From contig DASQIG010000406.1 in assembly GCA_035631735.1 (NCBI GenBank), positions 1 through 24,115 on the forward strand: 24,115 nt of DNA, written 5' to 3'. Below the pieces are notes generated by a model. It did not search any database and was not told the DNA's origin. It saw nothing but the letters and a program-made list of their open reading frames with translations. This document shows positions 15,093 to 19,436 of this stretch, piece by piece. Source of the stretch: Burkholderiales bacterium. GTDB taxonomy: Bacteria > Pseudomonadota > Gammaproteobacteria > Burkholderiales > SG8-39. Both the position numbers and the translations under genes were made by a program. The stretch's first letter is position 1. Every line of letters starts with the position of its first letter.

Positions 15093-18809
<3,717 letters not shown>

Positions 18810-18818
18810 GTACGCTCC

Positions 18819-18857
18819 AACAAGAAAGGCCCGTTCAGCTTTGCGCGAAACGGGCCT
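18819..18857 (-). terminator. Intrinsic terminator in the metH leader (riboswitch expression platform)
   Basis: AGGCCCGTT-(13 nt)-AACGGGCCT followed by TTCTTGTT, ending about 9 nt before the metH GTG. Confidence 0.75.
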
Positions 18858-18922
18858 GTTCGACGCGTCTCTTTAGCGGCATTTGTAACGCGCCCGCAAG
18901 CTGAACATCAAATCGGCGCGGT
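18857..18922 (-). ncRNA. SAM-II (SAM_alpha-type) riboswitch aptamer
   Basis: AC-CGCGCC-GAUUU-GAUGUUCA-GCUUGC-G-GGCGCG-UUAC-AAAU-GCCGCUAAAG-AGACG. P1 CGCGCC/GGCGCG is a perfect helix, and the conserved GAUUU, GCUUGC, AAAU and GCUAAAG blocks are in SAM-II order. It lies upstream of a methionine biosynthesis gene. Confidence 0.85.
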
Positions 18923-18928
18923 AGTGGG

Positions 18929-18957
18929 AGTCTGCCCACAGGGCTTGGACGTGTCAA
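18929..18957 (-). promoter_or_regulatory. Putative sigma70 promoter for metH
   Basis: Perfect TTGACA (18957-18952) - 17 nt - CAGACT (18934-18929). The predicted +1 is the A at 18922, 2 nt before riboswitch P1. Confidence 0.65.
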
Positions 18958-18972
18958 TCGCGGCCCTATAAT
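18945..18972 (+). promoter_or_regulatory. Putative sigma70 promoter for the thioesterase gene
   Basis: TTGGAC (18945-18950) - 16 nt - perfect TATAAT (18967-18972), 11 nt before the ATG at 18984. Confidence 0.55.
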
Positions 18973-18983
18973 CCGCGGCTCCC

Positions 18984-19436
18984 ATGGCCGCTGGCGCGGA
19001 ATTTCACTCGATCGTCGGGCGGTTTGCGTGCCGGGTGCACTGGGGCGACTGCGATCCGGCCGGGATGATTTTCTACCCGACCTACTTCCGCTGGGTCGAT
19101 GCGGCGAGCTGGGCGCTGTTCGAGACTGCGGGTTACGGGCCGCAGTGGATGAAGCGCGAGCACATCGCCATGCCGCTCGTCTCGGCGCAGTGCGAATTTC
19201 TCGCGCCCGCGGTTCAGGGCGACCGCTGCGAAGTGCGCTCCCGCATCGGACGCTTCGGCGGCAAGTCGTTCACCGTCGAGCACGACATCGTGCGCAGCGA
19301 CGGAACGGCCCTTGCGAAGGCGCAGGAGACGCGGGTCTGGGGCCGCTACGTCGGCGGCCCGGGCACGCCCCTCAAGGGCGAGACGATTCCGGAAGAGGTC
19401 AAGGCGCGTTTCCGCGCGCCCTCGCCCACTCGCTGA
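18984..19436 (+). CDS. Hotdog-fold acyl-CoA thioesterase (4-hydroxybenzoyl-CoA thioesterase / YbgC-like)
   Basis: RVHWGDCDPAGMIFYPTYFRWVD (catalytic-Asp motif), PLVSAQCEFLAP, RIGRFGGKSF. Confidence 0.88.
   Translation: MAAGAEFHSIVGRFACRVHWGDCDPAGMIFYPTYFRWVDAASWALFETAGYGPQWMKREHIAMPLVSAQCEFLAPAVQGDRCEVRSRIGRFGGKSFTVEHDIVRSDGTALAKAQETRVWGRYVGGPGTPLKGETIPEEVKARFRAPSPTR

Follow-up and report, generated by a model that had tools for sequence, protein, structure and literature searches.

A SAM-II riboswitch predicted to control metH by premature transcription termination in an uncultured Burkholderiales bacterium

The metH locus

The window considered here is the whole 24,115-nucleotide stretch of DNA that was analysed, and it derives from an uncultured member of the Burkholderiales, a betaproteobacterium in the NCBI sense as the earlier note on this DNA had judged probable. 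The host genome is a fragmented bin of 602 contigs that is 71% complete. Positions given below are those of the window, and the features described lie on its minus strand unless another strand is named. The principal gene is metH (15093-18809), identified by Pfam as encoding a cobalamin-dependent methionine synthase of 1238 amino acids and beginning with a GTG at 18809. The protein is full-length and comprises five Pfam domains, namely S-methyl_trans, Pterin_bind, B12-binding_2, B12-binding and Met_synt_B12. Its start codon lies 44 nt downstream of the riboswitch match described in the next section, a placement that agrees with the proposal that the switch controls metH. On the other side of the leader, a 4HBT-type thioesterase gene assigned by Pfam (18984-19436, plus strand) is transcribed divergently and lies outside the switch. 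Because this upstream neighbor is divergent, a terminator in the leader can act on metH alone. The remainder of the window is occupied by housekeeping genes including gyrB, topA, dprA, fmt, rsmB, a histidine kinase with a sigma-54 response regulator, and amtB.

A putative promoter can be read from the sequence ahead of the leader, consisting of a -35 hexamer TTGACA (18952-18957) followed 17 nt later by a -10 hexamer CAGACT (18929-18934). Both hexamers had been named in the earlier note, and their arrangement proves to be a recurring one: most metH leaders in the genus have TTGACA-N17-CAGAMT, the -35 hexamer standing at the same distance and the -10 reading CAGACT or CAGAAT throughout the genus. 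The predicted transcription start is at about 18922 (18921-18923). A pattern scan for consensus promoters and terminators returned nothing from this region, using a scanner that demands at least four of six matches in the -10 hexamer and a terminator loop of at most 8 nt. The promoter was left unflagged because CAGACT agrees with TATAAT at just three of six positions, and the terminator was missed because of the 8-nt loop limit; the empty scan is a limit of the scanner and no sign of absence. Translation would be served by a Shine-Dalgarno sequence, GGAG (18815-18818), read from the sequence 5 nt ahead of the start codon and downstream of the terminator. Neither the GGAG nor the GTG is complementary to any strand of the aptamer.

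A full-length SAM-II aptamer in the metH leader

In an Rfam covariance-model scan, the SAM-II family RF00521 (SAM_alpha) matches the window at 18853-18929 on the minus strand with 45.4 bits, covering the full model from position 1 to 79, against a gathering score of 36 bits for the family. The corresponding E-value is 1.9e-7 over the whole window and 1.6e-9 over the local stretch, and RF00521 is the sole Rfam family to reach threshold within the 24-kb window. Related families were also considered. SAM-V (RF01826), which shares its binding-pocket architecture with SAM-II, the SAH riboswitch (RF01057) and the SAM/SAH riboswitch (RF01727) gave no match on 18780-18980 even at E<=10. The earlier note had described a full SAM-II-like aptamer and had proposed the RF00521, SAM-V and SAH models as a check; the description is borne out by that comparison.

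The anatomy of the aptamer follows the family closely. The 5' strand of P1, CGCGCC (18915-18920), is taken from the structure line of cmscan and pairs with a 3' strand GGCGCG (18889-18894) that is placed both by cmscan and by an alignment of leaders. Between the P1 strands lie L1, GAUUUGAU (18907-18914), which contains the GAUUUG of the Rfam consensus, and the 5' or loop strand of P2, GUUCAGCUUGCG (18895-18906), for which the partner is either the tail or an antiterminator segment at 18845-18833. In known SAM-II structures, L1 is the U-rich strand of the triplex. P1 is followed by the A-rich linker L3, UUACAAAUGCC (18878-18888), which aligns to the consensus UUAAAcAAgUC, and then by the 3' strand of P2, the tail GCUAAAGAG (18869-18877), in which cmscan places the GCUAAA signature together with the GAG of P2a. 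The motifs GAUUUG in L1, AGCUUGC in the loop and GCUAAAG in the tail are the same as those of the RF00521 consensus in the cmscan alignment.

Conservation was assessed in 64 aptamers from the order and in an alignment of 19 terminator-type leaders, comprising 17 from metH and 2 from metX. The G-A-U-U-U-G columns of L1 are invariant among the 64 aptamers, and the bases of the pocket motifs in L1, loop and tail are nearly all either invariant or at least 90% conserved. P1 is paired in 99% of cells across the 19 leaders, its outer pair appearing as CG, AU, GU or UG and its other five pairs being invariant. The conserved P2a consists of YUC with GAG (18905-18903 with 18871-18869) and occupies the same place as P2 in the founding alignment; its columns, 20-22 with 55-57, are 98% paired (UG in 11 leaders and CG in 7), in a helix of only 3 bp where all changes are one-sided. 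Since P1 and P2b are nearly invariant in the set, little covariation is seen, and the P2b bases, invariant among the 64 aptamers, are uninformative about pairing. Judged by these features of its sequence, the metH leader carries a genuine SAM-II riboswitch, and one that would be expected to bind SAM. A further detail of the earlier note, a "perfect partner" for P2a in GAACA at 18861-18857, is present in the sequence, but relatives have GCGTG, GACCA, CCGAG and others in its stead, and the complementarity is best read as chance.

The terminator and a candidate antiterminator

Folding places an intrinsic terminator hairpin at 18828-18856, in which GGCCCGUUU (18856-18848) pairs with GAACGGGCC (18836-18828) and two inner pairs are added, and the sequence continues into a U-tract, UUUCUUGUU (18819-18827). 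The hairpin has a folding energy of -23.7 kcal/mol with a z-score of -3.3, and none of 200 shuffled sequences was as good. Across the 19 aligned leaders, 98.8% of its cells are paired and four pairs are altered on both sides, and every aligned leader has a T-rich run 3' of the hairpin.

The loop of this terminator appears to hold the partner of a competing helix. On the basis of duplex energy and conservation, the candidate antiterminator partner is CGC-A-AAGCUGAAC (18833-18845), a segment composed of the terminator loop and the first four nucleotides of the 3' arm. Its duplex with the P2 loop strand, GUUCAGCUU-GCG with CGC-A-AAGCUGAAC (18906-18895 with 18845-18833), has 9+3 bp and an energy of -15.3 kcal/mol. 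This duplex is present in the minimum free energy (MFE) structure of nascent transcripts ending at 18836-18831, and the terminator wins only after the last GGGCC. Within the terminator loop, the 5' part is variable and the 3' part is conserved as AAGCYGARC, the complement of GYUCAGCUU in the loop strand. Columns 20 and 106 form UA in 11 of the 19 leaders, CG in 7 and GC in 1, with no unpaired cells, and the base in column 106 is also tolerated in the terminator by means of a U-G wobble; this covariation of the antiterminator is confined to a single position and comes from related genomes, representing perhaps three independent events. Six of the 19 aligned leaders have an A-C mismatch in the middle of the helix.

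A shuffle test scored 17 metH leaders of the genus and gave z-scores from -1.5 to -6.6 for the complementarity of the loop strand to the terminator region. The leader of the window itself falls outside that set, its U-tract having no run of four T, and its duplex energy was calculated separately. The same test found this complementarity absent (z > 0) in almost every metZ leader from these genomes, and the metH leaders of G027 and G033, which belong to other families, were also without it. Because the candidate helix crosses P1, its formation implies either a pseudoknot or the opening of P1, and energy models limited to nested structures cannot evaluate this. The MFE structure of the full-length leader contains the terminator in every case, and control would therefore have to be kinetic. 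One other candidate, a local hairpin of GCGUCGAAC with GUUUCGCGC, was dropped as an antiterminator since it is not kept in the related genomes G013 or G005.

SAM-II and SAH riboswitches in the genome and genus

Two more SAM-II elements are present in the host genome, both of them below the Rfam gathering score. The first scores 34.8 bits and precedes a Cys/Met PLP enzyme of the metZ type (L002:1434-1512, minus strand, contig C272), with the U-tract of its terminator abutting the ATG. The second scores 29.9 bits and precedes metX-metW (L003:1501-1575, minus strand, equivalent to 5511-5585 of contig C21 of the host genome, G000); here the AUG lies 3 nt past GCUAAACAGAC, an arrangement of the translational type. 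The only SAH riboswitch of the genome scores 50.1 bits and is located on another contig (L158:200-272, plus strand, equivalent to C536:10499-10571 of G000), where it precedes ahcY, the gene for AdoHcyase (L158:310-1731). With the SAH riboswitch at ahcY, SAH and SAM would each have an RNA sensor of their own, serving separate branches of the cycle.

Comparable elements are widespread among relatives. The closest named relative is a metagenome-assembled genome (MAG) deposited as 'Burkholderiales bacterium', with a MetH that is 84% identical and a leader that is near-identical. A set of 40 relatives includes 24 genomes of the genus, each with between one and four SAM-II matches, and in 35 genomes of the order every classifiable match (68 of 68) sits directly upstream of metH, metX or metZ. 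The survey of metH leaders in relatives that the earlier note had called for finds a SAM-II element at metH in 18 of 25 genomes of the genus, most of which are incomplete bins, and in two other families of the order. The three genes differ in what follows the aptamer. In the metX copies, the start codon is 3-10 nt past GCUAAAGAGA, which is the classical translational arrangement also found in Bordetella; in the metZ copies a terminator abuts the ATG, and in the metH copies a free ribosome-binding site follows the terminator. One aptamer is thus joined to three expression platforms within one genome.

An exceptional metH leader is found in G001 (L130:207-337, plus strand), where the aptamer has no terminator. 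The MetH reading frame of G001 seems to begin at a GTG within L3 (ACAAGUGCC), in which case the P2 tail GCUAAAG would be coding. This leader may be a translational variant of the switch or an artefact of assembly or deletion.

Proposed mechanism and alternatives

The metH leader very probably acts as a SAM-II riboswitch that represses metH through premature transcription termination when SAM is high, with ligand binding and the direction of regulation both deduced from the sequence. The proposal builds on the family match, the genomic context, the conservation, and the pairing potential together with terminator covariation; from these, it predicts that SAM is bound, in which sense metH is regulated, where the promoter and start site lie, and which segment serves as antiterminator. 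Transcription would start at about 18922, and P1 would form in the nascent RNA. With SAM bound, the loop strand (18906-18895) would join the tail GCUAAAGAG (18877-18869) in an H-type pseudoknot. While the loop strand is engaged in this way, the hairpin at 18856-18828 and its U-tract would form, and RNA polymerase would stop ahead of the GGAG and GTG of metH. When SAM is absent, the free loop strand GUUCAGCUUGCG would capture CGC-A-AAGCUGAAC (18845-18833), a segment that contains the first four bases of the terminator 3' arm and would emerge before the last five. The resulting antiterminator would permit polymerase to read through into metH. At the level of the genome, the SAM-II elements at metH, metZ and metX-metW would combine with the SAH riboswitch at ahcY into a methionine/SAM-cycle regulon.

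A genuine SAM-II riboswitch could also operate through a conventional antiterminator. In this arrangement, the tail GAGACG (18871-18866) of the ligand-free RNA would pair with CGUUUC (18852-18847) in the 5' arm of the terminator, and SAM binding would pull the tail into the pseudoknot, freeing the 5' arm. The GAGACG/CGUUUC helix is paired in 91% of cells across the 19 leaders, complementarity of the tail to the downstream region reaches a z-score of about -2.5 in many metH leaders, and the metH leaders of Gemmatimonadota have a clear tail-based antiterminator of GCUAAAACGC with GCGUUUUAGC. In the host leader, however, this helix has just 6 bp including one G-U, none of its pairs is changed on both sides in the alignment, and all measures equal those of the shuffled control; it is also lost in two leaders that have GAGGCG (z of -0.1 and +0.35). 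These points make an antiterminator based on the tail unlikely as the main device, and its co-occurrence with the loop-strand helix in the MFE structures of transcripts ending at 18836-18831 is compatible with a helix that may act alongside the loop-strand pairing and not in its place.

Two further possibilities depart from ligand-controlled termination altogether. The aptamer could act chiefly on translation or mRNA stability, or the terminated leader of ~100 nt could be a functional small RNA, the terminator being constitutive. There is precedent in Sinorhizobium meliloti, where RZ and RA are proposed small RNAs and where the terminator after a SAM-II aptamer gives strong termination in both high- and low-SAM media while leader RNAs accumulate (PMC9373788). 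Also in keeping with it are the terminator in every full-length MFE structure here, the clearly translational metX copies of the same genus, with an AUG 3-10 nt past the P2 tail, and the terminator-free metH leader of G001. Nevertheless, the GGAG and GTG of the host metH lie downstream of the terminator and are non-complementary to the aptamer, leaving SAM no evident route for masking them, and a conserved and covarying complementarity between loop strand and terminator would be difficult to account for with an unregulated terminator; we regard such a role as quite improbable. Least credible is a chance or decayed look-alike of SAM-II that senses no ligand, with metH under a protein such as MetR or SahR. 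The short P2a helix would suit that reading, as would the regulators of metH reported by Leyn et al. 2014 in beta-proteobacterial genomes, which are MetR and SAH and not SAM_alpha (PMC4239095). Against it stand an E-value of 1.9e-7 in the window, the retention of the element, its ligand-pocket motifs invariant, by 18 of the 25 members of the genus, and the position of all classifiable matches upstream of methionine genes, which together render it very improbable indeed.

A wider survey of metH loci

The upstream regions of metH were also surveyed with Rfam at threshold in the best 80 metH loci from species-representative genomes. Within this set, SAM-II precedes metH in a sister Burkholderiales MAG and lies upstream of metH in four loci from Gemmatimonadota, directly so in three and, in the fourth (L092), about 1 kb away with an ORF between. 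Seven Bacteroidota have SAM-I ahead of metH, and three proteobacterial MAGs have an SAH aptamer there, two of them Burkholderiales/Rhodocyclaceae and one gammaproteobacterial (L042, L062 and L073). The statement in the earlier note that betaproteobacterial metH is more often linked to SAH riboswitches accordingly holds in part: three MAGs of the best 80 loci have an SAH aptamer before metH, but in the present genome the SAH riboswitch is at ahcY.

The four Gemmatimonadota elements (L052:1333-1407, L053:1346-1419, L101:1332-1404 and L092:445-520) score 42-50 bits. Their P1 is CGUGGC with GCCACG, which is of the alphaproteobacterial type and occupies the same place as P1 in the host leader. L052 and L053 have the tail-based antiterminator already noted, GCUAAAACGC with GCGUUUUAGC, a wiring unlike that of the Burkholderiales copies. 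Transfer of a riboswitch-metH cassette from Gemmatimonadota was considered and is unsupported; the MetH proteins are ~64% identical, but P1 and the antiterminator are different.

A lineage model (R1) built from the 64 aptamers of the order adds five loci that fall below the Rfam threshold among the same best 80. Four of these have the aptamer directly before metH, and they come from two Burkholderiales, one 'uncultured beta proteobacterium' and one Herminiimonas MAG; three of the four aptamers carry inserts. The insert-bearing, SAM-II-like aptamers before metH at L035, L038 and L057, from Burkholderiales MAGs other than the host and a Herminiimonas MAG, are missed at the Rfam threshold and score 25-46 bits with the lineage model. 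A hairpin of ~20 nt is inserted in L3 in both L035:1367-1443 and L038:371-447, and L057:1292-1407 has inserts in the loop and L3 totalling about 60 nt. The fifth added locus is from a MAG labelled Gammaproteobacteria (L055:337-392), where the aptamer scores 74 bits with the lineage model and is situated ~1.1 kb upstream of metH. The intervening ORF of 305 amino acids (581-1498) is followed by metH from 1504, and the two are probably a two-gene operon under one switch.

Relation to known SAM-II systems

The host leader resembles the classical SAM-II riboswitches of RF00521, also called the metA motif and exemplified by Agrobacterium tumefaciens metA and Sinorhizobium meliloti metZ, in having a promoter a few nucleotides before a 6-bp P1, an L1 with GAUUUG, the AGCUUGC motif, an A-rich L3 and a GCUAAAG tail, here predicted to enter an H-type pseudoknot, followed by an intrinsic terminator. 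It differs from them in its host, an uncultured member of the Burkholderiales, in its gene, metH, and in a P2a of only 3 bp; its P1 is GCGCC/GGCGC in place of the alphaproteobacterial CGUGG/CCACG, and its best-supported antiterminator uses the 5' or loop strand of P2 instead of the tail. A terminator-type SAM-II switch has been studied at S. meliloti metZ (PMC9373788), and many SAM-II representatives carry terminators according to Corbino 2005 (PMC1273637). That founding paper also recorded the motif in Bacteroides and, among proteobacteria, in a small number of other lineages (PMC1273637).

Neither the gene nor the bacterial class is new for SAM-II. The supplement of Corbino 2005 lists SAM-II before metH (COG0646/COG1410) in the environmental sequences Env02, Env04, Env05 and Env24, as well as before metE-metF in Coxiella and before metX-metW in Bordetella, a member of the Betaproteobacteria (PMC1273637). 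The four Sargasso Sea representatives share the aptamer class and the gene with the host leader, and three of them have a terminator right before the start codon. They are AT-rich, marine and of unassigned taxon, differ from the host leader in P1 and P2, and give no sign of a betaproteobacterial origin. The elements at metX-metW of Bordetella bronchiseptica and B. parapertussis come from the same bacterial class as the host leader and have a GGCGCC-type P1 and motifs, CGCUUGCGGGCGCC and AGCUAAAGA, that resemble those of the host leader. The SAH riboswitch (RF01057) is another regulator of SAM-cycle genes in relatives, metH included, but it differs in fold and ligand and is an ON switch; here it stands before ahcY and has no match at the metH locus.

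A second line of literature can be connected with these observations. Leyn et al. 2014 found SAM_alpha in Rhizobiales and Rhodobacterales only, with none in their beta-proteobacterial set, and described in beta-proteobacteria an unexplained RNA element named 'metXZ' that precedes metXW or metZ and consists of a pseudoknot (regions 1-4 and 2-6) with a terminator (PMC4239095). The topology and context of metXZ match those of the weaker SAM-II copies of the present genome and of the Bordetella SAM-II. To go by this agreement in topology and context, metXZ is probably a sub-threshold SAM-II, an identification that is absent from the Leyn paper. Both metXZ and the Bordetella SAM-II precede metX or metZ and occur in one copy per genome, while the present genome has a third copy at metH.

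Significance for annotation

The metH switch belongs to a well-known kind, found here in a host and before a gene that are somewhat under-annotated; it involves no new mechanism and raises no new question on how riboswitches work. A literature search found no paper that states SAM-II, metH and Betaproteobacteria or Burkholderiales together, and the host class and the gene are each already on record for SAM-II, separately. The earlier note had presented the pairing of aptamer, gene and taxon as under-reported. That view gives way before the metH and Bordetella cases of the founding paper (PMC1273637) and the recurrence of the metH link in 18 of 25 genomes of the genus, two other families, Burkholderiales/Herminiimonas MAGs and Gemmatimonadota. 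Only two points are mildly new, namely the loop-strand or 'decoy P2' antiterminator and how far Rfam falls short in detecting the beta-proteobacterial subfamily.

For annotation, the result places metH of this uncultured genus under a predicted direct feedback by SAM through RNA, in contrast to the SAH or MetR control found in cultured beta-proteobacteria. Weaker copies and copies with inserts escape the Rfam threshold, within these genomes as well as ahead of metH elsewhere in the Burkholderiales, so that regulon reconstructions based on Rfam, that of Leyn 2014 among them, count too few SAM-II elements in this class. We see about an even chance that the Burkholderiales possess a SAM-II subfamily of their own, with a near-invariant P1 (GCGCC/GGCGC), frequent hairpin inserts in L3 and many sub-threshold copies, that accounts for metXZ and has spread to metH in several lineages with a decoy-P2 antiterminator. 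The decoy would be independent of ligand, with the loop strand in the role of the tail and with the terminator loop and 3' arm as its target in place of the 5' arm. If such a subfamily exists, SAM-II would be a general sensor for methionine biosynthesis in beta-proteobacteria that current annotation mostly misses.

One minor observation concerns the opposite strand of the leader. The window has a weak antisense match to Rfam Bp2_287, a predicted Burkholderia sRNA, at 18824-18939 on the plus strand; with 17 bits against a gathering score of 70 and an E-value of 0.05 in a 201-base search, the match is not significant. It prompts the question of whether the Bp2_287 family is a met-leader element registered on the opposite strand.
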